From contig CACWKU010000008.1 of NCBI GenBank assembly GCA_902761575.1, positions 1 to 48,576 on the forward strand: 48,576 nucleotides of DNA, given 5' to 3'. Position 1 is the stretch's first letter. Each line of letters begins with the position of its first letter. Positions 1,025-37,700 of the stretch are shown here, piece by piece. The notes beneath the pieces are model-generated. The model made no database searches. It was not told the DNA's origin and saw nothing but the letters and a program-made list of their open reading frames with translations. The DNA is from an uncultured bacterium. Its GTDB lineage: Bacteria; Verrucomicrobiota; Kiritimatiellia; RFP12; UBA3636. A program made the translations under genes and the position numbers.

Positions 1025-5422
<4,398 letters not shown>

Positions 5423-9187: not shown

Positions 9188-9268
9188 GGTTCGAAGGTTC
9201 GAAAGTTCAAAGGTTCGAAGGTTCGAACGATTCAACCCTGGAACCTTCGAACCTTGGAACCTTGGAAC
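9188..9268. repeat. self-complementary tandem array built on GGTTCGAAG / CCTTCGAACC
   Basis: GGTTCGAAGGTTCGAAAGTTCAAAGGTTCGAAGGTTCGAACGATTCAACCCTGGAACCTTCGAACCTTGGAACCTTGGAAC fills the gspG-GT2 intercistronic gap. The two halves are mutually complementary. Confidence 0.85.
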
Positions 9269-11044: not shown

Positions 11045-11062
11045 GGTCGGAAGGGGCGGGAG

Positions 11063-11125
11063 GGTCCGGATGGTTCGGATGGTCCGGATGGTCGGGATGG
11101 TCCGGATGGTCGGGTGGTCGGGTGG
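11063..11125 (-). repeat. tandem 9-mer array (GGTCCGGAT-type) in the purB 5' leader
   Basis: GGTCCGGAT GGTTCGGAT GGTCCGGAT GGTCGGGAT GGTCCGGAT GGTCGGGT GGTCGGGTGG lies 19 nt upstream of the purB ATG. The coding strand reads ATCCGGACC-type. Confidence 0.9.
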
Positions 11126-21150: not shown

Positions 21151-21211
21151 CCTTCTCCCCCATCCCCCCTCTTCCGTCCGAAACCTTTCCACCGCGCATT
21201 TCCCTGCGAGC

Positions 21212-22431: not shown

Positions 22432-24345
22432 ATGAAACCCTTCCTCCATTCGCCGCGTAGCGGCGCCCATCATTCGGCGCGAAGCGCCGCCCTCCATTCG
22501 GCGGCAACGCCGCCCTTCATTCGCGCCATAGGCGCGTCCTTCATTCGCGCCATAGGCGCGCCCTTCATTCGCGGCGTAGCCGCGCCCTTCATTCGCCGCG
22601 TAGCGGCGCTCTTCATTCTCTGCGCGGCCGCGCCCCGCGCGGCCGCGCAGTGCGCCGCGCAGGGCGTCACGCTCAAGCCCGGCTGGAACGCCGTCTACGT
22701 CGAGGTCTCGCCCGAGGCGGACGCCACCGCGGTCTTCGGGCCGTGGCCGGTCGACTCGGTCGGCGTCTACGACCCGGCCTCGTTCCTCGCCACGCGCCAG
22801 TTCTCGGCGGACGGCGGGTCGGACGGCCTCGTCTCGTCGCCCATCTTCATGTGGAACCGCGAGTACCCCGAGGCGACGTCCGTCACGCGCGTCCCCGCGG
22901 GCGTGGTCTGCCTCTGCTTCAACACGAACCTCGCGAGCGGGGCGGAGGGGACGTTCTCGACGAACCTCGTCGGCGTCCCCGCCGCGCCGCGCACGACGTG
23001 GCACCGCAGCGAGGGCGGCGAGGTGCTCAACTACTTCGGCTTCTCGGTGCGCCCCGGCGCGGCGGTCGCGCCCGGCGCCTACCTCGCCGGCTTCGGCGAC
23101 CTGGCGGGCGGCTCGCTGCTGCGCATCGGCGGCAAGCGGCGCGAGGACCCGCCCTCGCGCCTGCCGGTCTACTCGAACGACACGGTCTCGGACGGCGAGG
23201 TGCTGCTCGTCGGCGCGACGGCGCCCTCGGACTGGTCCGGCGCGCTGTACGTCTCGCCGATGGACGGCCTCGACTTCGGCACCAACGCGACGCTCCGCAC
23301 GCTCTCGGTCCGCAACGACGGCGGCGCGCCGCGCACGGTCTCGCTGAAGCTGGACCGCGCCGTCGCGGAGCTCGACGCCCGCCTGCCCTTCGGCCCGGCG
23401 CTGCTCGTCTGGCGCGACGCGGACGTCGCCCGCACGAACGCCGCGTGGAACGCGCTCGAGGGCTTCGGCGCGTTCGCCTCGAAGCGCCTCGCCGCCGGCG
23501 AGACGTGGCGCCTGCAGTTCGGCCTCGACCGCGCGAGCGTCCCCGCCGGGCTCGTGCAGGGCATTCCCTTCGGCGCGCTCCTCACGGCGCTCGACGACGA
23601 CGGCGGCTCGCAGATGAAGGCGACCGTCCCGCTGCGCGCGGAGACGAGCGGCGCGGACGCCGCGCGCACCGCCTGGCCCTCCGGGCTGTGGATCGCCGAC
23701 GTCGCGCTCGACACGGTGGACTTCGCCTCCGCCGAGAACCCCGCCCCCGCGGGCGGCGTCCTCAAGCTGCGCCTCCCGCTGCACGTCGACGCGGAGGGCA
23801 AGGTCCGGCTGCTGCAGCGCGTCGTCGCCGCGGGCGAGGCCGACGCCGCCGGCAACCTCGCCTACCGCCTCTACGCGGGCGAGGCCGAGCCGCCCGCCAC
23901 CGCGTCGCAGGCGCTGCGCATCTCCTCGGCCGTGCTGCCGACCGAGACGCCGGTCGTCGAGGCCTCGTTCGCCGACTTCTCGTCCGCGATCGGCATCGCG
24001 ACGTTCCAGTTCGAGGTGGCGGCGGACGGCGCCACGAGCCTCCTGCGCCACCCCTACCATCCGCAGCACGACGGCCTGCGCTGGGACTTCTCCACGCCGG
24101 CGCCATCCGGCGATTTCATCGACAACTACAAGGGCGAGGTAAAGCCCGAGACCTTCTCCGTGAAGAACACGCTCATGCTGTCGTTCGACTTCGGCGCGGG
24201 CGCCTCGCGCTGGGACCCGCAGGACGCCGTCTCCGGCTCCTGCTGGTGGAGATTCTCGGGCCTCCGCCGCGAAGGCGACCTCGTCGCCTCCGGCCCCCTC
24301 TCCCTGAAGCGCGTCTCCGCCCTCTCGGAAATCGTCCTCGAATAA
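22432..24345 (+). CDS. secreted hypothetical protein (637 aa) with hairpin-array leader
   Basis: It starts 14 nt after the serpin stop. The N-terminus is the translated repeat array and ends in RRVAALFILCAAAPRAAAQ. The mature part is unassigned and contains HPYHPQHDGLRWDF. Confidence 0.6.
   Translation: MKPFLHSPRSGAHHSARSAALHSAATPPFIRAIGASFIRAIGAPFIRGVAAPFIRRVAALFILCAAAPRAAAQCAAQGVTLKPGWNAVYVEVSPEADATAVFGPWPVDSVGVYDPASFLATRQFSADGGSDGLVSSPIFMWNREYPEATSVTRVPAGVVCLCFNTNLASGAEGTFSTNLVGVPAAPRTTWHRSEGGEVLNYFGFSVRPGAAVAPGAYLAGFGDLAGGSLLRIGGKRREDPPSRLPVYSNDTVSDGEVLLVGATAPSDWSGALYVSPMDGLDFGTNATLRTLSVRNDGGAPRTVSLKLDRAVAELDARLPFGPALLVWRDADVARTNAAWNALEGFGAFASKRLAAGETWRLQFGLDRASVPAGLVQGIPFGALLTALDDDGGSQMKATVPLRAETSGADAARTAWPSGLWIADVALDTVDFASAENPAPAGGVLKLRLPLHVDAEGKVRLLQRVVAAGEADAAGNLAYRLYAGEAEPPATASQALRISSAVLPTETPVVEASFADFSSAIGIATFQFEVAADGATSLLRHPYHPQHDGLRWDFSTPAPSGDFIDNYKGEVKPETFSVKNTLMLSFDFGAGASRWDPQDAVSGSCWWRFSGLRREGDLVASGPLSLKRVSALSEIVLE
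22441..22650 (+). repeat. mini-hairpin tandem array A1 (7-8 units of ~24 nt) plus 13-bp terminal hairpin
   Basis: Units are of the type CCTTCATTCGCGCCATAGGCGCG and CCTTCATTCGCCGCGTAGCGGCG. The terminal hairpin is CTGCGCGGCCGCG ccccg CGCGGCCGCGCAG at 22620-22650. Confidence 0.9.
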
Positions 24346-24389
24346 CCTCATTCAACCAACCAAACACCGAACCACCCAAACACCGAACC

Positions 24390-25475
24390 ATGAAAACCAC
24401 CATTCCTCATTGCCGCGAAGCGGACCGTCATTCGGCGGCGACACCGCCGCCCTTCATTTGCGGGGACGCCGCACCCTTCGTTCGCCGCGCAGCGGCGTTC
24501 GTCATTGCCGCGCTTGCGGCCTCGGCCGCAAGCGCGGCCGGCTTCCGCGCGGCGCCCGTCGCCGAATTCAAGGAAGGTGCCCTCTCCTTCGGACTCTCCG
24601 CCGGAACGACGTTCGTCGGCGGCGAGGCCCGCGAGCACGTCTTCCATCCGAAGGGGTATTTGTCCGACTATCTGGAGGAAATCCCCGGCGCGCCCGCGGA
24701 AGACCGCCGCCACCAGCTCTCCCGTCTCGACTGGGACATGGCCTCCGTCCTCGTGGGCGTCTCCGGATCCCTCCGCTACGACCGCCTCTCGCTCAACCTC
24801 GGCATCTGGTACGGCGGCAGCGGCTCCGACGACTACGACATGAAGGACTACGACTGGATGGCGGGCGACCACGTCCCCCATACCGAGTACTCCCGCTCCG
24901 ACACGGAGCTCACCGACGCCTGGCTGTTCGACGCCAACGTCTCCTTCGACTTCTGGCGCTCCGAGGGCTTCACGGGCTACGTCTTCGCCGGCGCGCGCGA
25001 GCAGCGCTGGAAGTGGACCTGCGACGGCCGCACCGACTACTGGTACACCGAGAACGGCCACGTCTGGGAGCACGAGGACGGCCACATCTGCGACTACCGC
25101 CAGGTCCTCTTCTTCGGCTACGTCGGCCTCGGCGGAAGCTGGAGGCTGACCGATTCGCTCGGCCTCTCCGCCTACGTCTCCTGGGGCCCAGGCTGGAAGG
25201 GACGCGACCGCGACAACCACATCGGCGCCGAAAAGGACACGCACGACTCGTTCGACTACGATTCCAACGTCTACGCCGCCGGCGTCTCGCTCGACTGGCA
25301 CGTCGCCGAGCGCGCGACCGTCTCCTTCGGCGTCGACTGGCAGAAGGCCACGCTCAACCAGGGGCTCCTCTCCCAATGGGAGTACGGCTCCGACGAGACC
25401 GAGGAGATGCCCGACTCCGCCGGCATGGAGAACGAGTACCTCTCCTTCACCGTCGGCCTCGACTACGCCTTCTAG
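24390..25475 (+). CDS. omptin-family outer-membrane protease (peptidase A26)
   Basis: It aligns by eye along its whole length to OmpT/Pla: SRLDWDM, KDYDWMAGD (the Asp-x-Asp catalytic pair), ICDYRQVLFFGYVGLGGSWR, RDRDNH (the Asp-x-His pair) and the C-terminal ENEYLSFTVGLDYAF. Confidence 0.85.
   Translation: MKTTIPHCREADRHSAATPPPFICGDAAPFVRRAAAFVIAALAASAASAAGFRAAPVAEFKEGALSFGLSAGTTFVGGEAREHVFHPKGYLSDYLEEIPGAPAEDRRHQLSRLDWDMASVLVGVSGSLRYDRLSLNLGIWYGGSGSDDYDMKDYDWMAGDHVPHTEYSRSDTELTDAWLFDANVSFDFWRSEGFTGYVFAGAREQRWKWTCDGRTDYWYTENGHVWEHEDGHICDYRQVLFFGYVGLGGSWRLTDSLGLSAYVSWGPGWKGRDRDNHIGAEKDTHDSFDYDSNVYAAGVSLDWHVAERATVSFGVDWQKATLNQGLLSQWEYGSDETEEMPDSAGMENEYLSFTVGLDYAF
24403..24538 (+). repeat. mini-hairpin tandem array A2 (~5 units) plus 15-bp terminal hairpin
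   Basis: Unit examples are TTCCTCATTGCCGCGAAGCGG and CCTTCGTTCGCCGCGCAGCGGCG. The terminal hairpin is GCCGCGCTTGCGGCC tc GGCCGCAAGCGCGGC at 24507-24538. Confidence 0.9.
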
Positions 25476-26397: not shown

Positions 26398-28578
26398 TTG
26401 AACACGTCCGTCCTCCGTCATTGCCGCGAAGCGGCCCCGTCATTCGCGCCGCGCAGCGTCGCGATGTCATTGCGCCGCGCAGCGGCGCTCGTCATTGCCG
26501 CGCTTGCGGCCTCGGCCGCAAGCGCGGCCGCGCCGGTCACCCTCGCGCCGATGTTCCGCGACCACGCCGTTTTGCAACGGGACGTCCCCGTCCCGATCTG
26601 GGGAACGGCGGAGCCGGGGGCAAAGGTCGCGGTCCGACTCGTCCGTGCGGACGAGTCGGACGCGGAACCATGCGAAATGACGGCGACGGTCGGCGAGGAT
26701 GGACGCTGGCGCGTCGAGCTTCCGCCGCATCCCGCTGGCGGTCCTTACGAGCTCGGCGCAGCCGAGCTCCCCCATGCCCTCGGCGCCGCGTCCGCGCCGG
26801 ACGGCGCGGGCGCGCGCGCCGAGGACATCCTCATTGGCGATGTCTGGCTCTGCTCCGGCCAGTCGAACATGGACATGAACTACGGCTGGGGGCTCACGCG
26901 CGGGAAGGAGGACATCGAGACGAACGTGCACGCGAGGATCCGCCTCTTCGACGACCGCAACCGCACCGCGCTCTCGCCGCAGCGCGACCTGCCGGACGAC
27001 TACGGCTGGACGACCTGCGACCCCGCGCACGCAAAGTCCTTCTCCGCCGTCGGCTACTTCTTCGGGCAGGCGCTGCAGGAGGCGATGCCCGACGTCCCGA
27101 TCGGCCTCGTCGAGGCGTCCTGGTCCGGCTCGCCCATCAAGACCTGGATTCCCTACGAGGCCGCCGAGGCCCTCGGCGGCGATTTCGGCAAGCAGGCCGG
27201 CGAGCGCCGCGCCATCGCGGAGGCGTGGGAGAACGGCGGCGCCGAGCAGTTCAAGGTCGACCTCGCCGCGTGGATGGAAAAGCTGCCCGCAATCGACCCC
27301 GGCGACGCCCCCGCCGCGCCGGACTTCGACGATTCGGACTGGCAGACCGCCAACCTTCCCGAAATCACCGAGAAGCACACCAAGCCCGACTTCGACGGTT
27401 GGGTATGGTATCGCAGGACGTTCGTGATCGACGAAGAGGAGCATCCGGTCGTCGACACGGCCTCGCTTTCGCTCGGCCCCATCGACGACCAGGATTGGAC
27501 CTATGTCAATGGCGTTCTCGTCGGCACGACCAATGTGTGGGACGCACCTCGCGACTACAAGATTCCGGAAGGCGTCCTGCATTCCGGAACCAACACAATC
27601 GCGGTCAAGGTCCTCGACTGGGGCGGACACTCCGGATTCTGGAAGAACGCCCCCGCCGGCATGTCCGTATCGGTTTCGTTGGCGCAAGACGAAATCGTCA
27701 CCGAAGAATGCATCGTCGAAAGCAGTAGCACACGCACCATCCCCCTCGCCGGCGAATGGAAGTTCAAGGCGTTCCCGGCGGAGCCGCGGCCGGTGGACCC
27801 GTCGTCGCCGTCGTCGTGGGACATCGCCGCGTGCCACAACGGCATGGTGGCGCCGCTCTTCGGGATGGCGGCGAAGGGGGCGATCTGGTACCAGGGCTGC
27901 TCGGACGTCGGGCACGCGGACCTCTACGCGAAGCAGTTCCCGGCGATGGTCGGCGCGTGGCGCGAGGGCTTCGTGCACGACGACGCGGGCTTCCCGGTCT
28001 ACCTCGTGCAGCTCGCGGCGTTCAAGGAGGCGCACACGGAGCCGCTGGACTCCGCGTGGGCGCGGATGCGCTGGACGCAGATGCGGCTCGGCGAAACCGT
28101 CCCGCACTGCGGCACCGCCGTCGCGATCGACGTCGGCGACCACCGCGACATCCACCCCAAGGACAAGAAGACCGTCGGCGAGCGCCTCGCCGCTCTCGCG
28201 CTTGCGCAGACCTATGGTCGGGAAGGCCGGTCATTGAGCCCCGTGCCGTCGCAGGCGAGCTACGATTGGGCGGCGGGACACGTCATGATCCAATTCGTCG
28301 ACCCCGTATCCCTCAAGCCGGCGAAACTGCGAGAGGATTTCGACCTTCGCGGCTTCCAGGTTTTCATCGATGGCGGCGACTGGAAATGGGCGGAGAAGTC
28401 GTTCGTCAACGAAAAGATGTTCCCCGACACCGTGTTCGTGGACTGTCCCGGCGGAGTCCACACAAATGTTTGTGTCCGCTACGCGTGGGACGACTACCCC
28501 GACTGCAACCTCGTTTCCGCCGACGGCCTTCCCGTCGGCCCGTTCGAGCTGAAGGCGAAAATCCTCGATCTCAAATAG
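26398..28578 (+). CDS. sialate O-acetylesterase-like carbohydrate esterase with inserted galactose-binding-like domain
   Basis: The motif GDVWLCSGQSNM is typical of the 9-O-acetylesterase family. The segment DDSDWQTANLPE...WVWYRRTF is typical of a sugar-binding jelly roll. The track start is TTG. An in-frame ATG at 26464 would give MSLRRAAALVIAALAASAASA. Confidence 0.8.
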   Translation: MNTSVLRHCREAAPSFAPRSVAMSLRRAAALVIAALAASAASAAAPVTLAPMFRDHAVLQRDVPVPIWGTAEPGAKVAVRLVRADESDAEPCEMTATVGEDGRWRVELPPHPAGGPYELGAAELPHALGAASAPDGAGARAEDILIGDVWLCSGQSNMDMNYGWGLTRGKEDIETNVHARIRLFDDRNRTALSPQRDLPDDYGWTTCDPAHAKSFSAVGYFFGQALQEAMPDVPIGLVEASWSGSPIKTWIPYEAAEALGGDFGKQAGERRAIAEAWENGGAEQFKVDLAAWMEKLPAIDPGDAPAAPDFDDSDWQTANLPEITEKHTKPDFDGWVWYRRTFVIDEEEHPVVDTASLSLGPIDDQDWTYVNGVLVGTTNVWDAPRDYKIPEGVLHSGTNTIAVKVLDWGGHSGFWKNAPAGMSVSVSLAQDEIVTEECIVESSSTRTIPLAGEWKFKAFPAEPRPVDPSSPSSWDIAACHNGMVAPLFGMAAKGAIWYQGCSDVGHADLYAKQFPAMVGAWREGFVHDDAGFPVYLVQLAAFKEAHTEPLDSAWARMRWTQMRLGETVPHCGTAVAIDVGDHRDIHPKDKKTVGERLAALALAQTYGREGRSLSPVPSQASYDWAAGHVMIQFVDPVSLKPAKLREDFDLRGFQVFIDGGDWKWAEKSFVNEKMFPDTVFVDCPGGVHTNVCVRYAWDDYPDCNLVSADGLPVGPFELKAKILDLK
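26411..26528 (+). repeat. mini-hairpin tandem array A3 (~4 units) plus 15-bp terminal hairpin
   Basis: Its last 42 nt (26489-26530) are identical to 24499-24540, and it has the same terminal hairpin at 26497-26528. Confidence 0.9.
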
Positions 28579-28690: not shown

Positions 28691-28793
28691 GAAATCTCCC
28701 GTTTCTGCGGCCCGTTCGAACTGGAGATCACGCCCTGACCCCTTGCCCGCTCCCCGGAGCGCCCCCCATCAAAAACCAAAACACACAACGACC

Positions 28794-29888
28794 ATGAATA
28801 CTCCCGCCATCCGTCATTGCCGCGCAGCGGCCCCTTCATTCGCCGCGAAGCGGCGCCCTTCATTCGCCACGAAGTGGCGGTCGTCATTCGTCCTTGCGGC
28901 GGCGCTTTGCGCGCTGGCGCAAAGCGCCGCCGCCGCGGACGTCTCCTTCGCCTACCAGGGCGTGCTGCGCGCCGACGACGGCGGCGCGCTCCCCGAACGC
29001 AACCAGACGGTCGAGTTCCGCCTCTACGACAGCCCCGACGGCGAGACCGCGCTCTGGGGGCGCACGGTCGCGGTGCTGCTCGACGAAAACGGGCTCTTCA
29101 ACGCCGAGCTCTCCGACTCCGCCGGCTCGACGGCCCCGGGCGCCCCGGGCACCGGGCTCGCCGGCGTCTTCGCCGCGAACGCGGACAAGTCGCTCTTCGT
29201 CGGCCTCACGGTCGTCGGGACGAGCGGCGAGATCGCGCCGCGCCAGAAGATCCTCCCCGTGCCCTACGCGGTCTTCGCCTCCGACGTCGCGTCCGCGAGC
29301 GGCGACTTCGCCGCGGCCGGCGTCCTCACCGCGGCCTCCGCGACGTTCTCGGGCGGCGTCTCGGCCGCCTCGCTCGACGTCGCCGGCTCCGTCGCGGCCT
29401 CGTCGCTCTCCGTCACGGGCGACGCGACCGTCAACGGCGACCTGCAGGTCGGCGGCGCGGTCTCCGGCTTCGGCACGGTCCCGCTGGAGTGCATCATCCT
29501 GTGGAGCGGCTCCGCGGACGACATCCCGAACGGCTGGGCGCTCTGCAACGGCCAGACCGTCAACGGGCACACGACCCCCGACCTGCGCAACCGCTTCGTC
29601 GTCGGCGCCGGCACGGGCTCGCAGTACACGGTCGGCGAAACGGGCGGCGAGGAGAAGCACACGCTCTCGGAGAGCGAGATGCCGTCGCACTCGCACACCT
29701 ACGACTTCAAGGGCGCGGACTTCAAGGGCGCGTGGGACGACGACAACTACGTCTACGACGCATCCGGGCACTACAAGGACAGGTCCCAGAACGACAACCG
29801 GCGGACCACCAACTCGACCGGCGGCGGCGCCGCCCACGAGAACCGCCCGCCGTACTACGCGCTGTGCTACATCATGCGCGTCCGCTAG
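28794..29888 (+). CDS. secreted tail-fibre-like protein with C-terminal phage tail collar domain
   Basis: ORF 28743..29888 was trimmed to MNTPAIRHC. The N-module is FAYQGVLRADDG...VEFRLYDS...ALWGRT...PRQKILPVPYAVFA. The collar motifs are IPNGWALCNGQ, TPDLRNRFVVGAG, MPSHSHTY and HENRPPYYALCYIMR. Confidence 0.85.
   Translation: MNTPAIRHCRAAAPSFAAKRRPSFATKWRSSFVLAAALCALAQSAAAADVSFAYQGVLRADDGGALPERNQTVEFRLYDSPDGETALWGRTVAVLLDENGLFNAELSDSAGSTAPGAPGTGLAGVFAANADKSLFVGLTVVGTSGEIAPRQKILPVPYAVFASDVASASGDFAAAGVLTAASATFSGGVSAASLDVAGSVAASSLSVTGDATVNGDLQVGGAVSGFGTVPLECIILWSGSADDIPNGWALCNGQTVNGHTTPDLRNRFVVGAGTGSQYTVGETGGEEKHTLSESEMPSHSHTYDFKGADFKGAWDDDNYVYDASGHYKDRSQNDNRRTTNSTGGGAAHENRPPYYALCYIMRVR
28809..28933 (+). 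repeat. mini-hairpin tandem array A4 (~4 units) plus 17-bp terminal hairpin
   Basis: It includes the covarying unit CCTTCATTCGCCACGAAGTGGCG. The terminal hairpin is GCGGCGGCGCTTTGCGC gctg GCGCAAAGCGCCGCCGC at 28896-28933. Confidence 0.9.
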
Positions 29889-29899
29889 CGCGGCCGCTC

Positions 29900-30026
29900 A
29901 TGATGAATGAAGGGTTCCACTGCGCGGAAAATGAAGGGTGCTTCGCAAATGAAGGGTGCGCCTGCGGCGCAAATGAAGGGTCCCGCTTCGCGGGAAATGA
30001 AGGGTGCGGCTGAGCCGCAAATGATG
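29900..30026 (-). repeat. reverse-complement mini-hairpin array (5-6 units) downstream of tail-collar gene 1
   Basis: AATGAAGGG + TGCGCC tgc GGCGCA / TCCCGC ttc GCGGGA / TGCGGC tga GCCGCA. It starts 12 nt after the stop at 29888. Confidence 0.9.
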
Positions 30027-30077
30027 CAGTCAAACAATCCACGCTTTGCAACCATGACACGTTTCTTCGTTGCTTGT

Positions 30078-31487
30078 ATGCATCGCATCCGCTCCTATCA
30101 TTCGCGCGGAGCGCGCCACCCATTTGCCGCGCATCGGCACCCTTCATTCGCGCCAGCGGAGTGTCCTCCATTCACGACGAAGGCGTGCCCTTCATTCGCG
30201 CCAGCGGAGTGCCCTCCATTCACGCCGAAGGCGTGCCCTTCATTCGCGACGCGCAGCGGCGCGCCCTTCATTTGCGGCGGAGCCGCACCCGTCATTCGCG
30301 GCGCAGCCGCGCTCGTCATTGCCGCGGCCGCGACAGCGGCCGCGAGCCCGGCGCCCGCGCCGTGGAGGCAGGCCGACTTCGCGGCCGACCTCTATCGCAA
30401 GGCGGCGTCGGTGCAGCCGGCGGACGAAAACGTCGTGCTGTCGCCGTGGGGCGTGGCGAACCTCTTCGCGCTGCTGCAGACCGGCGCGCGGGGGGACACC
30501 GCTCGCGGCATGGCCTTCGCGCTGCAGCTCGGCGGCGTCGAGCCGCCCGAGCCCGACGCCGTCGCCGCGACGTTCCGCGAGTCGCGCACGAACCTCGAAC
30601 GCGCCGCGAACGACGACGTCGCGCTCGAGCTCTCCGATTCGCTCTGGATCAAGCCCGGATTCGCCCTGTCCGAGAGCTTCCGCTCCCTTGCCCGCGACTC
30701 CTTCGACGCCGACGTCCGCCTCACCTGGATGGGCGCCAAGGGTCGCAAGGAGATCAACGCCTTCGTCGCCGAGAAGACCCACGACCGCATCAAGGACCTG
30801 ATCCAGCCGCCCGTCCTCGACGATCCGCTGACGCGCCTCGTCGCCGTCGACACGGTCTACCTCAAGGCCAAGTGGGAGATCCCCTTCGAGAAGGACGCCA
30901 CGCGCGACCGGACCTTCCACGCGCCGGGCGGCGACGTCGAGGTCCCGTTCCTCCACGACACGCGCCACGCGGAGATCCTCGACGCGCCCGAGTGCGCCGC
31001 GCTGCGGCTCCCGTACCGCTTCGGCTCGGCGGAGATGCTCGTGATCCTGCCGTCGCCCTCCAACACGCTCGCGGAGGTCGAGGCGAAGCTCTCCGGCCCG
31101 TGGCTCGACCGGCTCGCCGCCAAACCGTGGCGGGGCGAGGCCGTCCTCGCGCTCCCGAAGTTCGACTTCGGCAGCGAGCACGACCTGTCGAAGACGCTCC
31201 CGTACATGGGCATGGGCGCCGCGTTCGACCCCGCCCGCGCCGACTTCTCCGGCATCGCGCCGCAGCTCTACATCGGCACCGCCATCCAGAAGGCCAACGT
31301 CACGGTCGACGAAGCCGGCACCGAGGCCGCCGCCGCGACTTTCGCGGTCATGCTGGAAGGGTGCATCGGTCCGATGGAGAACGTTCCGCCCCCGCGCCCG
31401 TTCGTCGCCGACAGGCCGTTCCTCTTCATCATCCGCGAAACCCGCACCGGCCTGATCCTCTTCCTCGGCCGCGTCTGCAAGCCCTAG
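30078..31487 (+). CDS. serpin (inhibitory-type hinge), secreted, with long hairpin-array leader
   Basis: The start was chosen as MHRIRSYHS by analogy with neighbouring leaders; alternatives are 30054 and 29907. Motifs are LSPWGVANLFALL and VDTVYLKAKW. The hinge is DEAGTEAAAATFAV and the end is DRPFLFIIRE. Confidence 0.85.
   Translation: MHRIRSYHSRGARHPFAAHRHPSFAPAECPPFTTKACPSFAPAECPPFTPKACPSFATRSGAPFICGGAAPVIRGAAALVIAAAATAAASPAPAPWRQADFAADLYRKAASVQPADENVVLSPWGVANLFALLQTGARGDTARGMAFALQLGGVEPPEPDAVAATFRESRTNLERAANDDVALELSDSLWIKPGFALSESFRSLARDSFDADVRLTWMGAKGRKEINAFVAEKTHDRIKDLIQPPVLDDPLTRLVAVDTVYLKAKWEIPFEKDATRDRTFHAPGGDVEVPFLHDTRHAEILDAPECAALRLPYRFGSAEMLVILPSPSNTLAEVEAKLSGPWLDRLAAKPWRGEAVLALPKFDFGSEHDLSKTLPYMGMGAAFDPARADFSGIAPQLYIGTAIQKANVTVDEAGTEAAAATFAVMLEGCIGPMENVPPPRPFVADRPFLFIIRETRTGLILFLGRVCKP
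30093..30344 (+). repeat. mini-hairpin tandem array A5 (~10 units, includes a 48-nt higher-order repeat) plus 9-bp terminal hairpin
   Basis: CCTTCATTCGCGCCAGCGGAGTG(T)CCTCCATTCACG(A/C)CGAAGGCGTGC occurs twice. The terminal hairpin is CGCGGCCGC gaca GCGGCCGCG at 30323-30344. Confidence 0.9.
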
Positions 31488-31500
31488 GAGCGAAACTCGT

Positions 31501-34254
31501 ATGAGAACACAAGCAAGAACAACACGTCCCTGCCGCGCAGCGGCCGGCCATTCGGCGGCAATGCCGCCGCCCTTCATTCGCCGCGCAGCGGCGCCCTTCA
31601 TTTGCGGCGGAGCCGCACCCTTCATTCGCCGCGCAGCGGCGCTCGTCATTCTCGCGACGCTGACCGTTTCGGCCCACGCCGAAACGGTCAGCATCGCGAG
31701 CGCCGCCGACTGGGCGGCGTTCGCGGAGCGCGTGAACGCGGGCGAAACGGACCTCTGCGCGGAGATGACCGCCGACGTGACGCTCGGGAACGACGCGCCG
31801 CGCGTCGGAAGTTCGAACTACTTCGGGGGAACCTTCGACGGTCAGGGGCACGCGCTCACGGTCGCGTTCGAGGAGACGGGCGGCTCGGGTTCCGATCGCG
31901 ACCCTCCCTGCGCCCCCTTCGCCTACGTGTGCGGGGCGAGCATCCGGAACCTGCACGTCACCGGAACCATCGCCTCCAACGGCCGTTACGCGGCCGGTTT
32001 CTGCGGTTTCGTGGCCGCCCTGAACGGGACGACCTCGCTTTCGAACTGCCGCTCGTCCGTCTGCGTCGAATGCCGTGTCGACGGCGACGCCACGTCCGCC
32101 GGATTCGTCGGCGCCGTCAAGACGCCCGGCACGCTCCAGATGTCCGACTGCGTCTTCGACGGTTCGATTTGTTCCGGGAGGGGCGTCACGGCCCATTCCT
32201 GCGGCGGGTTCGTCGGCTGGCGCGACGCTTCCGCCTCGGTCTATCTGGGGAGATGCCTGTTCGCTCCGGCGAAGACCAGGGTGGGGACCGACGGAAACGC
32301 CTCGACCTTCGTGCGCGACAACGGCGCCGACGGCCGGAACATCGACGCCTGCCACTATCTCCAGACGCTCGGCGCGGCGCAGGGCGCGAACGCCTCCGCG
32401 ACGTCCGCGGAGGACCTCGCCGCCGCGCTGGGAAGCGACTGGACCGTCGCGGACGGCAAGGTCGTTCTCGCGTCCTTCCCCGGTTCGGTCGAGGTCTACG
32501 ATCCCGATTGGGTCGAGATCTCCTCCGCCGCCGACTGGACCGAGTTCGCCGAATTGGTGAACGCGGGCGAAACGTACCTCTGCGCGAAGATGACCGCCGA
32601 CGTGGCGCTCGGGAACGACGCGCCGCGCGTCGGCACGACGGAGGCCACCGCCTGGACGGGCGAGTTCGACGGCGGCGGACACACGCTCACGGTGGACTGG
32701 ACGTTCACGAAGACGGAATTCGCCGCCCCGTTCGCGATCGTCTCCGGATGCTTCGTCCACGACCTGCACGTCGCCGGATCGATCTCCTCCGACACCAACT
32801 ACGTCGCCGGGTTCGCCGGCTGGGCGAAGCCCGGGGCCCGGTATCCCACGTTCGAACGCTGCCGGTCCTCCGTTGCCCTCACGTGCACGAAGTCCGGCGA
32901 GGTGTGCTGCGGCGGCTTCGTGGGCTACACGTTCTGGGCGGTCTACAACGTCTGCTTCCGGGACTGCCTGTTCGACGGCTCCCTTCTCGGACCGAACGCC
33001 GAACGGTGCGGCGGGTTCGCCGCAAGCCCCTTCGTCGACGCCAACATCGATCTGCACAACTGCCTCTTCGACCCCGCTCAGGTCACGGTTTCGAGCTCAA
33101 TGTCGGGGACCCTCGTGGGCACCCCCTACTCCAGCCACACCTGGGTCGACACGTGCTACTACACCCGGGTCCTCGGCGCGAAGCAGGGCACGGACGCCTC
33201 CGCGATGTCCGAGGAGGACCTCGCCGCCGCGCTCGGCGAGAACTGGATCGTCGCGAGCGGAAAGGTCCTCCCGAAGACGTTCGTCGAGGTCGGCCATCCC
33301 GAGAATGCCGTGGCGGGGTTCGTCTACCAGGGCGCGCTGCGCGACGCGCAGGGGTTCGCGCTCGCGGAGAAGCGCCGGACGGTCGAGATCCGCCTCTACG
33401 CGCAGGCCGCGGGCGGCACCTCGCTCTGGGGCCGGAAGCACGACGTGCTGCTCGACGACGCCGGGCTCTTCCTCGTCCAGCTCTCGGACGACGCCGGCAC
33501 GCCGGTCGACGGCGACCCGGGGACGCCGCTCGCGGACGTCCTCGCGCGGAACGCCGGCGTCCCGCTCTTCGCCGGAGTGACGGTGGCGGGGGCCGGCGCG
33601 GAGATCTCGCCGCGCCAGAAGCTCCTCCCCGCGCCGTTCGCGCTCCTCGCGTCGGATGCCTCCGCCGCGCGCGGCGACTTCGCCGTCGCGGGCGCCCTCT
33701 CCGCGGAGGGGCTGGTCGTCTCGGACGAGCTCGCCGCCCCGTCCGCGCAGATCTCCGGCGCGGCCACCGCCGGGACGCTCGGAACCGCCGGCGGCGTGCG
33801 CGCGGACGGCAACCTGTCGGTCGCGGGCGAGCTCGCGGGCTACGGCACGATCCCCGTCGGCGGCATCGTCGCGTGGAACGGCGCGGAGTCCGCCATCCCG
33901 AACGGCTGGGCGCTCTGCAACGGCCAGACCGCCAACGGGCGCAAGACCCCCGACCTGCGCAACCGCTTCGTCGTCGCCGCGGGCGGGCAGTACAAGGCCG
34001 GCGACACGGGCGGCGAGGACAAGCACAAGCTGACGGTCTCCGAGCTGCCGCCGCACTCGCACACCTACGACTTCAAGGGCGCGGACTTCGACCTCGCGTG
34101 GGACGACGACAACTACATCTACGACGCCTCCGAGCACTACAAGGACAGGCCCCAGAACGCCAACCAGAGGTCCACCAACGCGGCCGGCGGCGACCAGCCG
34201 CACGAGAACCGCCCGCCGTACTACGCGCTTTGCTACATCATGCGCGTCCGCTAG
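31501..34254 (+). CDS. secreted protein: two Cys-rich GLUG-like modules + tail-fibre-like module + phage tail collar domain
   Basis: It starts 13 nt after the serpin stop. Two ~270-aa repeats begin SAADWAAFAERVNAGETDLCAEMTADVTLGNDAPRVG and SAADWTEFAELVNAGETYLCAKMTADVALGNDAPRVG. The C-terminal ~320 aa is paralogous to 28794..29888 and ends identically in HENRPPYYALCYIMRVR. Confidence 0.8.
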   Translation: MRTQARTTRPCRAAAGHSAAMPPPFIRRAAAPFICGGAAPFIRRAAALVILATLTVSAHAETVSIASAADWAAFAERVNAGETDLCAEMTADVTLGNDAPRVGSSNYFGGTFDGQGHALTVAFEETGGSGSDRDPPCAPFAYVCGASIRNLHVTGTIASNGRYAAGFCGFVAALNGTTSLSNCRSSVCVECRVDGDATSAGFVGAVKTPGTLQMSDCVFDGSICSGRGVTAHSCGGFVGWRDASASVYLGRCLFAPAKTRVGTDGNASTFVRDNGADGRNIDACHYLQTLGAAQGANASATSAEDLAAALGSDWTVADGKVVLASFPGSVEVYDPDWVEISSAADWTEFAELVNAGETYLCAKMTADVALGNDAPRVGTTEATAWTGEFDGGGHTLTVDWTFTKTEFAAPFAIVSGCFVHDLHVAGSISSDTNYVAGFAGWAKPGARYPTFERCRSSVALTCTKSGEVCCGGFVGYTFWAVYNVCFRDCLFDGSLLGPNAERCGGFAASPFVDANIDLHNCLFDPAQVTVSSSMSGTLVGTPYSSHTWVDTCYYTRVLGAKQGTDASAMSEEDLAAALGENWIVASGKVLPKTFVEVGHPENAVAGFVYQGALRDAQGFALAEKRRTVEIRLYAQAAGGTSLWGRKHDVLLDDAGLFLVQLSDDAGTPVDGDPGTPLADVLARNAGVPLFAGVTVAGAGAEISPRQKLLPAPFALLASDASAARGDFAVAGALSAEGLVVSDELAAPSAQISGAATAGTLGTAGGVRADGNLSVAGELAGYGTIPVGGIVAWNGAESAIPNGWALCNGQTANGRKTPDLRNRFVVAAGGQYKAGDTGGEDKHKLTVSELPPHSHTYDFKGADFDLAWDDDNYIYDASEHYKDRPQNANQRSTNAAGGDQPHENRPPYYALCYIMRVR
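31526..31700 (+). repeat. mini-hairpin tandem array A6 (~5 units) plus 22-bp terminal hairpin
   Basis: The terminal structure is CTCGCGA c GCTGACCGTTTCGGC ccac GCCGAAACGGTCAGC a TCGCGAG at 31651-31700. That is 15 perfect bp plus 7 more after one mismatch. Confidence 0.9.
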
Positions 34255-34265
34255 CGCGGCCGCGC

Positions 34266-34396
34266 ATGATGAACGAAGGGTGCTTCGCAAATGAAGGGTG
34301 CTTCGCAAATGGAGGGTGCCGCTCCGCGGCAAATGAAGAGTGCGCCTGCGACGCAAATGAAGAGGACTTCGCGAATGAAGGGCGCGTTTCGCGCGA
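34266..34396 (-). repeat. reverse-complement mini-hairpin array (~6 units) downstream of tail-collar gene 2
   Basis: AATGAAGGG/AATGGAGGG/AATGAAGAG spacers alternate with TGCCGC tcc GCGGCA and similar stems. It starts 12 nt after the stop at 34254, in the same junction sequence as at 29888. Confidence 0.9.
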
Positions 34397-34415
34397 ACGG
34401 AAAGAATCGACCGAC

Positions 34416-34781
34416 ATGAAACCGGAAGACGATCCACTGAAAGAGAAGAGCATGGCGTTCGCCGTGTGCGCGGTGAAGCTCGCGAGGTGGCTGCGCGAGG
34501 AGAAAAAGGAGTTCTCCCTCGCCGACCAGATTCTGCGGAGCGGAACCAGCATCGGCGCGAATCTGGCGGAAGCCCGCCACGCCGCGTCGCGCAAGGACTT
34601 TCTCGCGAAGTGCAAGATCTCGCTCAAAGAGTGTTCCGAAACCCTCTTCTGGATCGAACTGCTCGAACGCTCGGACCTTCTTTCCCGCGACCAGGCGAAG
34701 CCCCTTGCTTCCGATTGCAACGACATCCGCCGCCTTCTCGCGGCTTCTTGTAAAACTCTCGAACGGAATCTCCAGCCATGA
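34416..34781 (+). CDS. four-helix-bundle protein (23S rRNA intervening-sequence protein / Avd-like family)
   Basis: 121 aa, MKPEDDPLKEKSMAFAVCAVKLARWL...ADQILRSGTSIGANLAEARHAASRKDFLAKCKISLKECSETLFWIELL. This is the characteristic GANIAEG/SxxDF/ExxYWL pattern. GC is visibly lower than in the neighbours. Its stop overlaps the next ATG (ATGA). Confidence 0.85.
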   Translation: MKPEDDPLKEKSMAFAVCAVKLARWLREEKKEFSLADQILRSGTSIGANLAEARHAASRKDFLAKCKISLKECSETLFWIELLERSDLLSRDQAKPLASDCNDIRRLLAASCKTLERNLQP

Positions 34782-37700
34782 AACTGTCCGACCTGTTCCA
34801 TTCGCCGCGCAGCGGCGCCCTTCATTCGGCGCGGAGCGCCGCCCTTCATTCGGCGGCAACGCCGCCGCCCTTCATTCGCCGCGCAGCGGCGCTCTTCATC
34901 GCGTTGACGGCCGCGACGGCGAGCGAAGCCGCGGATGCCGGATTTACGCTCGGCGTGCCTTCGGCTCCGACCTTGCGGCTGAGCTCCGACGCGGCCGCCA
35001 ACGCCTGGCTTTCGTCCAACGCGCTCTATCCCGCGATGGCGGTCGTGGCGCCGGGCTGGGACGTCGCGACCAACGCCGCGTCGTCCCTGCAGTCCGTCGC
35101 GGGCGAGGAGACCGTGAAGCTCGCCGCCGCCGAGGCCGGCTTCGCGATCGAGCGCACCAAGCCCGAGTACTACCTCGGCGACCTGGTCTCCCCGCCGCCG
35201 CGCGTCGACTGGACCGCCACCTACGAGCGCTTCGTCCGGGACGGCACGGTGGGCTTCCTCTTCGACGCCGCCGGCCAGCGCGTCTACGCCACGCTCGGCG
35301 GAACGGTCCGGTTCACGTGGGTCCTCGAGAACGGCAGCGCGGTCGACATGACCTACGTCGTCTCGTCCTGCTGCTCCGGCCGCCCGCGCCGCATCTACTG
35401 GACGGACCACCCCTACAACGGCCCGCCGATCGACCTGAGCGGCAAGTTCGTGAAGTTCTACGGCCCCGACGAGCTCGTGAAGCCGGCCTACGGCGTCTAC
35501 ACGAACGAGACCGCCGGCATGACCCAGGTCCTCACGAACCGCGTCGTCTCCGGCCTCTACAACGACCCGTCGACCAAGATGCTCTACGCCTACGGCGAGC
35601 TGCAGGGGCAGGTCGTGATGGCCTACTACGACACAGGCACCTTCGAGCGCCTCCTGCACGTGCAGACGGTCGAGATCTGCCGCCCCGTCGTGAACGCGAT
35701 GACGGGCGAGATCGGCCGCCAGCTCAAGCCCGACGGCCGCGGCTACCCGACCGCCGGCCTCCGCGCGCGCCCCACCGTCGTCCAGCCCACGGACGACCGC
35801 GGCGACTACCTCTACCAGCACAAAGGCAAGCATTCCTACAGCCCGAAGAACGGCGCCGTCTTCCCGCTGCGCCCCACCGTCGGCAGCCGCTGGAACGCGG
35901 AGGTGTACTGGATGGAGACCGACGAGATGCTCGTCCAGTGGCCGTTCGAGCTCGACCAGTACGAGTGCGACTGGCCGAAGGACGCCACCGTGTTCGTCCG
36001 CGGCGACCAGGGCGGCGACACGGGCCGCCCGATCTACGTCCCCGACTCCTTCACGCCGACGCTGATGGGCTACCAGGACCCCGAGGGCCACGCCCGCGCC
36101 GTGGAGTCCGACGGCACGTTCCGGACGACCGACGAGGGCTGGTCGCTCCTGAAGCTCGCGGTCGACGACGACGTCTGGTTCGTCCCGCTCCATTCGATCC
36201 TGCGCTCCAACCCCGAGTACTTCACGCTCGAGGAGCAGACGGTCGCCGTCGGCTCCGAGCTGCGCCTCCGCGGCGGCTCGGTCGCCGGCACGGCGGGGAC
36301 GTTCTCGCCCTCCTGCGACCCCGACAGCCCCGGCTACGTCTATCCGCCCGTCTCGGGCGACCACTTCAACCACCGCCTCTACCGCGAGCCGCAGTCGTCC
36401 GCATCCGCGCAGACGAACCAGACCTCGTCCGCCTCCTCCGAGGGCTCCGACACCAACACGTACGCCTCGGTGGTCTACGCGGTCAACGTCGCGGAGAAGC
36501 CGATCGAGGTCTGGTGGAACACGACGATCAAGGAGGAGGGGATGCCCGCCGCGGTCGAGATTCCGACGCTCCCGCAGGTCTACCGCGCGCGCTGGCCGGA
36601 GCTCTGGGAGACGCCTCAGATCGTCATCGCCTCGCAGCAGGGCAGCGCCGCCGAGTCGGTCTATTCGCAGAACCGCGGCCTCTACCTCGACGCGACGAAC
36701 TCCACGGCCATGCTCGCCTCCCGCGCCTATTTCTCCGCCGAAAGCGGGATGGTGCAGCTCTGGATCCGGCCCGACGGCCTCGCGACGGACGACGCCGGCC
36801 GCGCCGTCCTCTCGCTCCACGGCCAGGGCGGGACGAATCTCGTCCTCGACCTGCGCCCGGACCCCGCCGCGGGCGCGACGAACCTCGTCCTTTCGCTGGA
36901 CGGCTCCGGCTCGGTCTCCGTTCCCTTCGAATACCTCCCCGACTTCGGCCTCTGGGTCCCCGTCCAGATCGAGATCGCGCCGGGCGCCGTCGCGCTCCGC
37001 GCCGGCTTCCTCGAGGAGGCCTCCCTCGACGGCGACGCCACGCCGCTGCTCGGCGACGTGGTCGGCGCCGCGCTCGGCGCCTCCGCCGGCGTCGGGGCGC
37101 GCGCCGGCGCCACGGTCGCCGAGATCCTCTTCCGCGCGAAGGCGATCGACGCCGCCGACGCCTTCACCGATGCGTTCGCCGTCCACGAGGGGCGCGAGGT
37201 CGGCCTCACGGGCTGCTACTCGTTCCGCGACACGGACCTGCAGATCGTCCCGGGCTCCGCCGTCCGCGTCTTCACCGACAAGGCGCTCGGCTCGCGCCAC
37301 CGCGCCCTCCGCTGCCTCTCCGAGTCCGACGGTCCGCCGCTCTTCGGCGCGGGCGTGGTCGTCTCCGACGCCGGCACGACGCCGGTCGTCTACGCGCAGA
37401 ACGACCCGGAAGAGCCCGGCTACAACCCGAACGAGGAGCACGGCATCGTGACCGCCGGCTCCGGCGGGCACGTCGCGTGGGCGCTGCGCTCCGACCTCAA
37501 CTCGGACACGTCCTCCGCGCCCGGCGTCCTCGTCGAATACGTCTCGGACGGCCGCAAGGCGATGCGCTGGTTCTCCGTCGCCGTCACCAACTCCCTCTGG
37601 CCCGAACTCGCCGCGCCCTGCACCGCCGGCCTCGCGCTCCCGGGCCCGCACCCGCTCGACACGTTCGACAACCCGTGGAAGAAGGAGACCTACTGGGACG

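Follow-up and report, generated by a model that had tools for sequence, protein, structure and literature searches.

The window, that is, the whole stretch of 48,576 nucleotides that was analysed, is chromosomal DNA of a ruminant-gut Kiritimatiellae bacterium and not that of a phage. The locus of interest comprises two Collar-domain genes, a serpin gene, a small four-helix-bundle (4HB, or 'S23p') gene and a giant secreted-protein gene, interspersed with tandem arrays of a short repeat in forward or reverse-complement (RC) orientation; an omptin gene is found further upstream at 24390-25475. The Collar genes and all of their neighbours lie on the plus strand throughout, with no oppositely oriented module there. 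The features are as follows:

28794-29888, plus strand: Collar-domain gene 1, 364 aa with a signal peptide, Pfam Collar and Gp10_C; outside the predicted stem, upstream of element 1
28810-28933, plus strand: solo forward array of about four units plus a palindrome, downstream of the ATG of Collar gene 1 and ahead of its signal-peptide core
29870-29905, plus strand: stop-codon hairpin of Collar gene 1, CATCATGCGCG...TAG...CGCTCATGATG
29906-30026, plus strand: RC array 1 (RC1), five AATGAAGGG+hairpin units; 5' arm of a predicted stem-loop without a 4HB ORF
30027-30092, plus strand: loop or spacer of 66 nt, containing the serpin start codon
30054-31487, plus strand: serpin gene, ATG at 30054
30093-30344, plus strand: forward array of about ten units, early in the serpin coding sequence; 3' arm of predicted stem 1
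31501-34254, plus strand: Collar-domain gene 2, 917 aa, Collar/Gp10_C domain
31546-31700, plus strand: solo forward array within Collar gene 2
34236-34271, plus strand: stop-codon hairpin of Collar gene 2, spanning the stop
34272-34396, plus strand: RC array 2 (RC2), six units; upstream arm of the complete element
34416-34781, plus strand: 4HB gene, PF05635 / TIGR02436, nearest solved relative 2RLD
34778-43501, plus strand: giant secreted-protein gene, 2907 aa, whose ATG overlaps the 4HB stop as ATGA
34797-34902, plus strand: forward array of five units, early in the coding sequence for the 2907-aa protein; downstream arm of predicted stem 2

The 4HB assignment is supported by matches to Pfam PF05635 (6.4e-25), TIGR02436 (1.1e-28) and 2RLD (1.2e-28), and the ATG of Collar gene 1 is the same start as in public gene calls. 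The repeat unit is a composite of 24 or 18 nt, in which a core, AATGAAGGG, is joined to a GC hairpin, and successive units are arranged head to tail with a fixed 9-nt linker; 24 nt is the main unit length, with variants of 22, 23, 26 and 28 nt here and of 7 nt in relatives. The hairpin of the unit is real: across 22 distinct 24-nt units its 6-bp stem is paired in 97.7% of cells, 30 double-sided changes are present, and none of 500 shuffles was equally good. Single units also score as weak terminator-like hairpins, a score that is uninformative, while the hairpin spanning the stop of Collar gene 1 has compensatory variants in relatives. A search of Rfam returned no relevant family, and a sigma-70 promoter scan found nothing.

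When at most one mismatch is allowed, CCCTTCATT is matched 36 times in the window against 2.8 expected (maximum of 7 in 100 shuffles), and its minus-strand matches are confined to 29906-30004 (five units, spacing 24/18/24/24) and 34272-34382 (six units, spacing 18/18/24/24/18). The earlier note on this DNA was therefore right in placing RC arrays at only two sites (29906-30026 and 34272-34396), after the stop codons of both Collar-domain genes, and the junction that it described before each of them, ATCATGCGCGTCCGCTAGCGCGGCCGC(T/G)CATGATGAA, is present in the sequence. The final ~390 nt of both Collar genes, the junction and the first units share ~90% identity, so that its proposal of a duplicated unit consisting of the Collar C-terminal module plus the RC array is likewise supported. 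Each RC array also faces the next forward array, as had been claimed: RC1 across the 66-nt spacer (30027-30092) and RC2 across the PF05635 gene (34416-34781). The further claim that each Collar gene is flanked by inverted repeats of 100-130 nt stands only in part; inverted arrays of one family are indeed found on both sides, but the complementary stretches measure 57-58 nt at 75-81% complementarity, and the longest perfect complementary run between arms is 10-17 nt. The forward array at the 5' end of each Collar gene is one of a larger group of leader arrays on genes for secreted proteins, and it is not the partner of an RC array.

Related loci keep the position of the arrays and change their sequence, or dialect. 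The array that follows the Collar stop is, in relatives, (AGTGACG)n, AATGACGG+hairpin (22 nt), AAATGAAGGG+TGCCAGGGCA (~20 nt, 22 units) or (AATGACA)n, and the array beyond the next start codon complements it in every case. For instance, the same geometry is built wholly of 7-mers in L014, where one dialect is common to all arrays, coding DNA is 93-95% identical to that of the window and gene order is equal; all dialects of a locus change between genomes that are ~94% identical. The layout with the serpin start in the loop recurs in L006 and L014. In the mosaic strain L179, two dialects stand side by side, and each 4HB gene has its own matched pair of arrays (scores 69 and 49, against 19 and 19 across elements), whereas the arrays flanking the Collar genes differ in type and do not complement each other (scores 22 and 19, against a background of ~20). 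Since Collar genes are flanked there by unmatched arrays and 4HB genes by matched ones, the 'bracketing' of Collar genes is incidental, and a 5'-3' panhandle in the Collar mRNA is ruled out by the same arrays.

Among strains, copy number changes rapidly: RC1 has 5 or 11 units (11 in L191) in strains 96-100% identical elsewhere, RC2 has 5-8 units in strains with the same or a near-identical 4HB protein, and the leader array of the giant gene has 1-5 units. In L098 and L099 the RC array comes after the giant gene, and in L153 and L157 after def; moreover, Collar 3' ends carry an array in 7/7 cases with a 4HB gene within 700 nt versus 19/87 without one. The RC array is thus associated with the 4HB gene and not with Collar. 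In L172 and L173, the RC array and the 4HB gene are kept and the downstream forward array is absent. Solo arrays also exist, of the RC type in L072 and L081 and of the forward type in many places, so that pairing cannot explain every array.

Other readings of the arrays were considered and set aside. RC arrays read as small ORFs or N-terminal extensions (MMNEGC..., sharing the frame of the window's 4HB gene, and MKG..., sharing that of the serpin) are ruled out because the 7-nt and 22-nt dialects of relatives have TGA in every frame and the unit of L175 is 16 nt. A minus-strand gene with its 5' end in an RC array is ruled out by the antisense ORFs, which have no coding signal; the resemblance of forward units to anti-Shine-Dalgarno mimics and of RC units to Shine-Dalgarno arrays is weak, and the similarity of the 66-nt spacer to the flanks in L028 is too weak for a claim that it is the remnant of a deleted 4HB gene.

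The same arrangement is found far beyond these bacteria. In 76 4HB loci from many phyla, tandem arrays (mostly heptamers) lie on both sides in 62 and are inverted-complementary in 60, at a cut-off of an inverted score of at least 35 that only 2/208 shifted control windows reached. The upstream arm is purine-rich in 50/60 and pyrimidine-rich in 0, and the mean score of a locus's own arms is 64 versus 21 for cross-locus pairs. In these other phyla both arms are local and intergenic, and the 4HB genes occur between unrelated housekeeping genes and also between cas genes. The architecture, its conserved position and orientation, the arm-arm covariation across dialects and phyla and the fast change of copy number between strains are shown.

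The best explanation, to which as a whole a probability of about 0.6 is given, is that the RC arrays are the upstream, purine-rich arms of stem-loop cassettes resembling the intervening sequences (IVSs) of 23S rRNA, here inserted between protein-coding genes, with a PF05635 4HB ORF as their core and with arms that pair and are cut by RNase III. The complete cassette would consist of the RC array at 34272-34396, the 4HB ORF at 34416-34781 and the complementary forward array at 34797-34902, inside the first codons of the next gene; a second copy, made up of the RC array at 29906-30026, the 66-nt loop and the forward array at 30093-30344, would form the same stem minus the ORF; it probably arose when the Collar 3' module was duplicated, and it carries the serpin start codon in its loop. 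In a read-through transcript, both arms may pair into a long duplex. Such stems had been proposed in the earlier note, and predicted RNA folds agree by pairing the RC array with the next forward array (z = -7.8, -4.8, -6.3 and -10.5; in the minimum-free-energy fold, 34272-34396 pairs with 34797-34902 at z = -4.8), the pairing being a thermodynamic prediction. By analogy with 23S-rRNA IVSs, the duplex would be cut by RNase III, so that the 4HB segment would be set free and the start of the ORF beyond it cut off or masked; the downstream gene could then be expressed only from transcripts that start within the loop. Against this explanation, the arms of the window are, at 71-85%, imperfect, and RC2 matches other forward arrays no less well than its own partner. 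A cut inside the downstream coding region would be costly, and what benefit it might bring is speculative.

The most serious competitor, unlikely but with an appreciable claim, gives the arrays no host function: they would be hyper-unstable repeats, the outcome of slippage, gene conversion and template switching, and the matching of arms would be a mutational by-product or would serve only to spread a selfish 4HB cassette through DNA-level terminal inverted repeats. Indeed, in closely spaced inverted repeats covariation can also arise by template-switch 'quasipalindrome' correction or gene conversion, without selection on a stem. Copy numbers that vary between strains otherwise 96-100% identical, and the switch of all arrays of a locus to another dialect between ~94% identical genomes, fit this explanation, as does the presence of 4HB genes among unrelated housekeeping and cas genes, which is expected of selfish insertions. 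It can also account for orientation, in that the forward arrays, read in three frames, hold 7 stops, 20 acidic and 214 basic residues in 849 codons and would survive in signal-peptide leaders because they are almost without stop and acidic codons, whereas the RC arrays (11 stops in 247 codons) would survive only in intergenic gaps. IVSs are, furthermore, regarded as selfish elements (PMC4990558). However, the constant polarity of the arms across unrelated unit sequences (purine-rich upstream in 50/60, the reverse in 0) points to a strand-specific constraint at the level of RNA or translation; pairs stay matched with an ORF of 360 nt between them, a distance at which correction by template switching is expected to be weak; and the position of the arrays has been kept over deep divergence.

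An improbable alternative is action in trans, in which antisense RNA from the RC arrays, perhaps set free by processing, would pair with the forward arrays that directly follow the start codon in many mRNAs for secreted proteins, and would co-regulate the secretome. Seven forward arrays versus only two RC arrays of one family within 13 kb, the complementarity of RC2 to distant forward arrays, which is as good as that to its own partner, and the single dialect of all arrays in L014 speak for such a scheme. Nevertheless, the two adjacent dialects of L179 each match only in cis, and the arms of other phyla are local and intergenic. Still less credence is given to phase-variation tracts, in which gain or loss of units would shift the frame of surface-protein genes, as in Neisseria opa, with the RC arrays as decayed copies. 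The placement of arrays between the ATG and the signal-peptide core, the occurrence of unit lengths such as 22, 23, 26, 28 and 7 nt, and one allele in L187 that lacks 74 nt and is out of frame would suit it; yet 8/9 strain alleles are in frame despite differing unit composition, the L187 allele may reflect an assembly collapse, leaders built of 7-mers have a constant ~4.5 copies whatever the gene, and the RC arrays, their position and their link to 4HB genes are left unexplained.

The inversion switch put forward in the earlier note, in which recombination between forward and RC arrays would flip a Collar gene or the enclosed segment and so switch it on, off or in orientation, can be set aside as scarcely credible: inverted arrays of one family do flank both Collar genes and both short segments, and systems that invert fibre genes are known from both phages and plasmids, but no recombinase, integrase or resolvase domain was found in the scanned ORFs of the window, perfect runs of 10-17 nt are shorter than the ~25 nt that RecA-dependent exchange usually requires, an inversion would find no alternative module or promoter to engage, the arrays flanking Collar genes in L179 are not complementary, and all of the ~30 related or strain-level loci examined (L004/L028, L006, L014-L019, L043, L051, L093-L099 and L172-L191) have one orientation, with the opposite absent, despite large variation in copy number. 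Moreover, purine-rich arrays occur behind many unrelated genes wherever a 4HB gene follows, a finding which that note had itself named as speaking against a switch. Inverted arrays beside fibre-like genes are accordingly not to be read as invertible switches in annotation, and gene starts called downstream of leader arrays call for caution.

The IVS-like reading of the locus can be extended into a wider, joint claim that is offered tentatively, as possible but short of probable. PF05635 4HB genes across phyla would form one class of cassette with polar inverted arrays of short tandem repeats (the purine-rich arm upstream, its complement downstream), of whose insertion sites that of the classical 23S-rRNA IVS would merely be the most familiar; among rumen Kiritimatiellae, the arm on the downstream side would have merged with the repeat-encoded leaders of secreted proteins, double-stranded RNA processing at the stem would gate the serpin and the 2907-aa surface protein, and sets of arrays would be rewritten in concert between genomes ~6% diverged. 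To our knowledge, no function has been assigned to the PF05635 / S23p family since its discovery in rRNA intervening sequences, and it is annotated only as 'four helix bundle protein', with its genes dispersed among operons, cas loci included. If polar inverted arrays were a general rule, they would provide a concrete, testable handle on this family by way of a putative RNase III substrate, possible binding of the protein to the arrays and a possible effect on the gene downstream; in addition, IVS-type cassettes would act in mRNAs as well as in rRNA, and many 'mysterious' convergent heptamer arrays would be explained. In the literature searched, no paper states a general link between 4HB genes and inverted arrays, and only the one on the Coxiella IVS (PMC4990558) and the one on Xanthomonas heptamers (PMC4692102) are relevant.

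Several known systems resemble the locus in part. CRISPR arrays have identical repeats of 23-50 nt and unique spacers of similar length, whereas the conserved part here is 9-11 nt and the 'spacers' are self-complementary hairpins of 13-15 nt. REP/BIME elements, imperfect palindromes outside genes that have a conserved GTAG head and are spread by a RAYT transposase, are likewise clustered short GC-rich palindromic units, in either orientation and in genome-specific families; the units here, however, are head to tail with a CCCTTCATT linker (fixed 9 nt), lack the GTAG head and lie mostly within coding leaders, and no RAYT gene is found in the window. A diversity-generating retroelement comprises a reverse transcriptase and a template repeat ~90% identical to the variable repeat at the 3' end of its target gene. 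Its Avd protein belongs to a PF05635-like fold family, and the 4HB gene directly follows a gene with a receptor-binding C-terminal module, but no reverse transcriptase or template/variable repeat pair occurs in the window or in the loci of relatives, and the Collar 3' end is repeated at length only in the paralogous Collar gene; a remnant of such an element is thus ruled out for the window, which has no reverse transcriptase domain and no template repeat. In the Neisseria opa genes (CTCTT), as here, tandem repeats of variable copy number separate the start codon of a surface-protein gene from its signal-peptide core; unlike theirs, the main unit here is 24 nt, frame-neutral and hairpin-forming with compensatory changes, and alleles are mostly in frame (1/9 strain alleles is out of frame, possibly as an assembly artefact). 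The Mu G/Gin, P1 C/Cin and R64 shufflon/Rci systems combine an adjacent site-specific recombinase, short conserved crossover sites, opposed alternative C-terminal modules and both orientations in populations; inverted repeats beside genes with fibre-like C-terminal receptor-binding modules are common to them and to this locus, and none of the four hallmarks was found here.

Further parallels are provided by the convergent pairs of heptamer arrays of Xanthomonas (GGGAATC) and the heptamer arrays of Nostoc, which are intergenic, are often paired as potential stem-loops and are of variable length between close relatives and constant position, and for which G-quadruplexes were proposed and no link to a 4HB ORF was made (PMC4692102). 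The arrays here are similarly paired, convergent, variable in length and fixed in position; unlike those, their units are not G4-forming and many lie in coding leaders. The closest match is the 23S-rRNA IVS with an S23p/PF05635 ORF, known from Coxiella burnetii, Leptospira, Brucella and Xanthomonas (PMC4990558; Ralph & McClelland 1993 as cited there). The Coxiella IVS contains an S23p ORF, tandem heptamers (GACAGAT) upstream of the ORF in strain-variable number and a 28-bp terminal stem that is cut by RNase III (PMC4990558). The element described here differs in its location between a Collar-domain gene and a 2907-aa secreted-protein gene rather than in 23S helix 25 or 45 (no rRNA match was found in 22-36 kb), in arms that are arrays of 24/18-nt composite units instead of a simple 28-bp stem, in a 3' arm within the coding leader of the next gene and in a copy without ORF, at 29906-30344. 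It shares with the IVS a small 4HB ORF in the loop of a long predicted stem formed by terminal inverted repeats, an AG-rich upstream region and short tandem repeats of strain-variable number just before the ORF start; at 34272-34902, and there only, the PF05635 / TIGR02436 ORF, enclosing inverted repeats and strain-variable upstream tandem repeats are found together.

The window has a G+C content of about 70% and carries purL, a GH9 cellulase gene, a T2SS pseudopilin gene, purB, Sir2, trkAH, a ybaK-like gene and others, and its nearest relatives are Kiritimatiellae MAGs from rumen and gut; therefore, the products of the so-called tail-collar genes are surface proteins of a bacterium that bear a Collar/Gp10_C module of phage type, and the genes are not phage genes. 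The stretch from 20.8 to 43.5 kb is a run of secreted-protein genes, all on the plus strand.

Genes of the secreted-protein run and forward arrays of the window
20807-22417, plus strand, serpin ORF (first in run)
between first serpin and omptin, plus strand, unknown 637-aa protein
24390-25475, plus strand, omptin
after omptin, plus strand, membrane protein
after the membrane protein, plus strand, SASA esterase
28794-29888, plus strand, Collar-domain protein 1
30054-31487, plus strand, serpin (second in run)
31501-34254, plus strand, Collar-domain protein 2
34416-34781, plus strand, PF05635 four-helix-bundle (4HB) protein
34778-43501, plus strand, 2907-aa protein (giant gene)
22443-22635, 24424-24497, 26414-26459, 28810-28879, 30093-30344, 31546-31665 and 34797-34902, forward arrays of CCCTTCATT matches

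The first serpin ORF opens with a 135-residue N-terminal extension, non-coding in appearance, and translation more likely begins at the later MKRPFRHAFLLLAF..., so that the protein has an ordinary signal peptide and no array.

With at most one mismatch, CCCTTCATT occurs 36 times in the window versus 2.8 expected; the repeat unit consists of a 9-nt linker and a 6-bp GC hairpin, the latter supported by compensatory changes in the aligned units (97.7% paired, 30 double-sided changes, none of 500 shuffles as good). Each forward array follows a start codon and precedes a signal peptide's hydrophobic core; an ATG stands upstream of six of them, and each of the six shares its gene's reading frame. 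Reverse-complement copies are confined to 29906-30026 (RC1) and 34272-34396 (RC2), and an identical junction precedes both after the Collar stop codon, so on both counts the earlier note was right. The Collar 3' ends, the junction and the first RC units are about 90% identical between the two copies; therefore, this block was duplicated, in keeping with the proposal that the duplicated unit was the Collar C-terminal module plus RC array. The first RC unit is fused with the 3' arm of a hairpin around the stop codon, and the RC array may thus be an outgrowth of that arm. This hairpin encloses the Collar stop codon at 29870-29905 and 34236-34271 and also in L017, L051, L093 and L097; its 5' arm codes for the conserved C-terminus (..YIMRVR), and in relatives its 3' arm tracks the 5' arm by compensatory changes.

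Long, perfect or near-perfect palindromes encode signal-peptide hydrophobic cores at 28898-28933, 31650-31700, 24505-24536, 26490-26521 and 22620-22655; omptin and esterase have an identical 32-nt palindrome in common, and similar ones are present in the related locus L014. The leaders of array-bearing genes (24354-24390, 28760-28793 and others) are CA-rich, without a Shine-Dalgarno sequence, and have a conserved ACC-ATG-A context, the omptin ATG being preceded by the 16-nt tandem repeat AACCAACCAAACACCG.

Other arrays occur outside the run. (CGAGTGA)x12 lies at 43996-44078, and its minus-strand reading (TCACTCG)n adjoins the ATG (43995) of the ybaK/tRNA_edit gene; thus, the 7-nt repeat-unit type (dialect) of L014 also exists in the window's genome, where it occupies the 5' UTR of a gene for a cytoplasmic protein. 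At 9188-9268, between the stop of the T2SS-G pseudopilin (minus strand) and the next gene's ATG, two adjacent inverted arrays, (GGTTCGAA)5 and (AACCTTSG)4, form an ORF-less array hairpin resembling RC1. Pyrimidine-rich (sense-strand) tandem arrays stand directly upstream of purL's start codon ((TTCAACCNN)n, 5433-5492) and probably of purB's ((GGACCATCC)n, 11059-11125; true start likely MIARYSRPEM...), so start-codon arrays are not restricted to secreted proteins. Moreover, a low-complexity stretch about 150 aa long is inserted in frame into PurL (ORF 1025-5422, minus strand) at 3061-3514, in which (CGGTCACA)4.6 and the inverse (GACCGTGT)4.5 flank (GAATGCT)4.7 and (CGTCTSG)4, an inverted array pair within a housekeeping coding sequence. 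Start-site annotation near arrays is unreliable in this clade. The automatic public gene calls of the strain-level loci L189-L191 place the serpin and esterase starts past the arrays, with loss of the signal peptide, and for Collar1, Collar2, omptin and the giant gene choose the ATG that precedes the arrays.

Related loci were collected by array pattern, Collar protein, 4HB protein, junction in metagenomes and exact-protein look-up, the last of which gave 13 strain-level places. Directly behind the Collar stop, relatives carry arrays of quite different units.

Arrays behind the Collar stop in related loci
L014, L015, L018, L043: (AGTGACG)n
L019, L051: AATGACGG + hairpin
L017: ~20-nt unit, 22 copies
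L028: 24-nt unit, 10 copies

A 4HB gene comes next in nearly all of these loci, followed by a gene with a complementary array in its 5' coding end. L014 shares the window's gene order, with coding DNA 93-95% identical, and repeats the entire geometry in 7-mers, with forward (TCACTCG) arrays of about 4.5 copies behind five start codons and (AGTGACG)n behind both Collar stops; the segment swapped between the two begins exactly at the ATG (for RC arms, at the stop codon) and ends exactly where the hydrophobic core starts. An array was present at the Collar 3' end in 7/7 cases with a 4HB gene at most 700 nt away versus 19/87 without. The gene upstream of RC-type array and 4HB can be other than Collar, for example the giant gene in L098 and L099, a second 4HB of RUG13889 (L119) and def in L153 and L157. 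At the place equivalent to RC1, L028 has the order Collar, RC array, 4HB, serpin, and the best reading of RC1 is that the Collar 3' module and left arm were copied and the 4HB ORF is absent; in L048, three Collar genes in tandem have ORF-less modules (RC array, ATG, forward array) upstream.

L179 decides the matter: Collar1 (24-nt-type leader array), (AGTGACG)5 and 4HB#1 are followed there by Collar2 with a (CACTCGT)4 leader, a 24-nt RC array, 4HB#2 (identical to the window's 4HB) and the giant gene, whose leader is of the 24-nt type. The two array pairs flanking a 4HB gene score 69 and 49 for complementarity, versus 19 and 19 for pairs taken from different elements, 22 and 19 for those on either side of a Collar gene and a background of about 20; therefore, arm covariation follows the 4HB cassette, not the genome and not the Collar genes. 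The locus is very mosaic among genomes 93-98% identical (L014, L179 and L172/L173 versus the window), L179 being without omptin, membrane protein, esterase and serpin and having one extra 4HB; gain and loss of cassettes may be driven by the forward arrays, which form direct repeats at each gene start.

The arrangement was also looked for at 76 4HB loci whose flanks were usable, drawn from Firmicutes, Bacteroidota, Alphaproteobacteria, Chloroflexota, Spirochaetota, Planctomycetota and PVC bacteria. Tandem arrays, almost always of period 7, lie on both sides of the ORF in 62, and the upstream/downstream inverted score is at least 35 in 60 (shuffle mean about 19; 35 reached in 2/208 shifted control windows). 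The units are unrelated between loci (GAGTGGA, GGAGATA, TAGTGAT, GAAAAAT, AAGTTCA, GGCGTAG and others), and in a 23 x 23 arm matrix the mean score is 64 for own versus 21 for foreign arms, so that the arm matching is covariation of whole arrays. The upstream arm is purine-rich (>0.6) in 50 of the 60 and pyrimidine-rich in none, a constant polarity that speaks for a constraint acting on RNA or translation and against a pure DNA repeat. The upstream, RC-type arm is AG-rich and provides stop codons, which in the 7-nt and 22-nt dialects fall in every frame; the downstream, forward arm has almost no stop or acidic codons.

Alongside the observed architecture, polarity, positional conservation, arm covariation and copy-number instability, the long RNA stems suggested earlier are supported as predicted folds: RC1 pairs with the serpin leader array around a loop that contains the serpin ATG (-251 kcal/mol, z = -7.8), RC2 does so with the leader array of the giant gene around a loop that contains the 4HB ORF (z = -4.8), and the 7-mer versions fold into perfect stems about 33-35 bp long (z = -6.3, -10.5). 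By analogy, such duplexes would be candidate RNase III substrates. Cleavage or pairing would part the Collar message from what comes after and, because the 3' arm sits past the start codon of the downstream ORF, would inactivate that ORF on read-through transcripts, while transcripts initiated inside the loop would escape. The feature is read, with a probability of roughly 0.6, as a 4HB stem-loop cassette of the type of the intervening sequences (IVS) in 23S rRNA.

A serious rival holds that arm matching is purely mutational or selfish, through slippage, gene conversion, quasipalindrome correction or cassette mobility, because an RC partner is missing for five of the window's leader arrays, the dialect switch between the window and L014 is common to all arrays of the locus, L172 and L173 (with a different gene behind 4HB) have no downstream arm, and solo RC-type arrays occur. 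Phase variation is a minor alternative favored by L187, where the giant-gene leader array is 74 nt shorter and the ATG is no longer in the reading frame of the 2907-aa ORF, which marks either a phase-off allele or a collapse in the assembly; eight other strain alleles of different unit make-up are in frame. A trans-antisense role of the arrays is likewise minor. Inversion of the Collar genes or enclosed segments, the switch proposed in the earlier note, is unsupported, as no ORF of the window has a recombinase domain and every fetched locus has the same orientation; inverted flanks do surround each Collar gene, but they measure 57-58 nt at 75-81% complementarity instead of 100-130 nt, with perfect complementary runs between arms of 10-17 nt. 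RC1 has 5 units in the window versus 11 in L191 (96-98% identical elsewhere), RC2 has 5-8 and the giant-gene leader 1-5 among strains; hence, the arrays are highly unstable in length, yet inversion was never seen.

The search of the available library found no paper stating a general rule of inverted arrays around 4HB genes; 4HB genes between cas genes were noted previously (PMC3936711), and convergent heptamer array pairs of unknown function were described in Xanthomonas with no 4HB link made (PMC4692102). For the preferred cassette reading, the closest counterpart is the 23S-rRNA IVS of Coxiella burnetii, in which a 28-bp terminal stem holds an S23p (PF05635) ORF in its loop, 3-4 tandem heptamers (GACAGAT), strain-dependent in number, precede the ORF start, and RNase III cuts the stem at the first repeat (PMC4990558). 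Unlike that IVS, the feature in the window sits in an mRNA context, and its arms are composite hairpin arrays.
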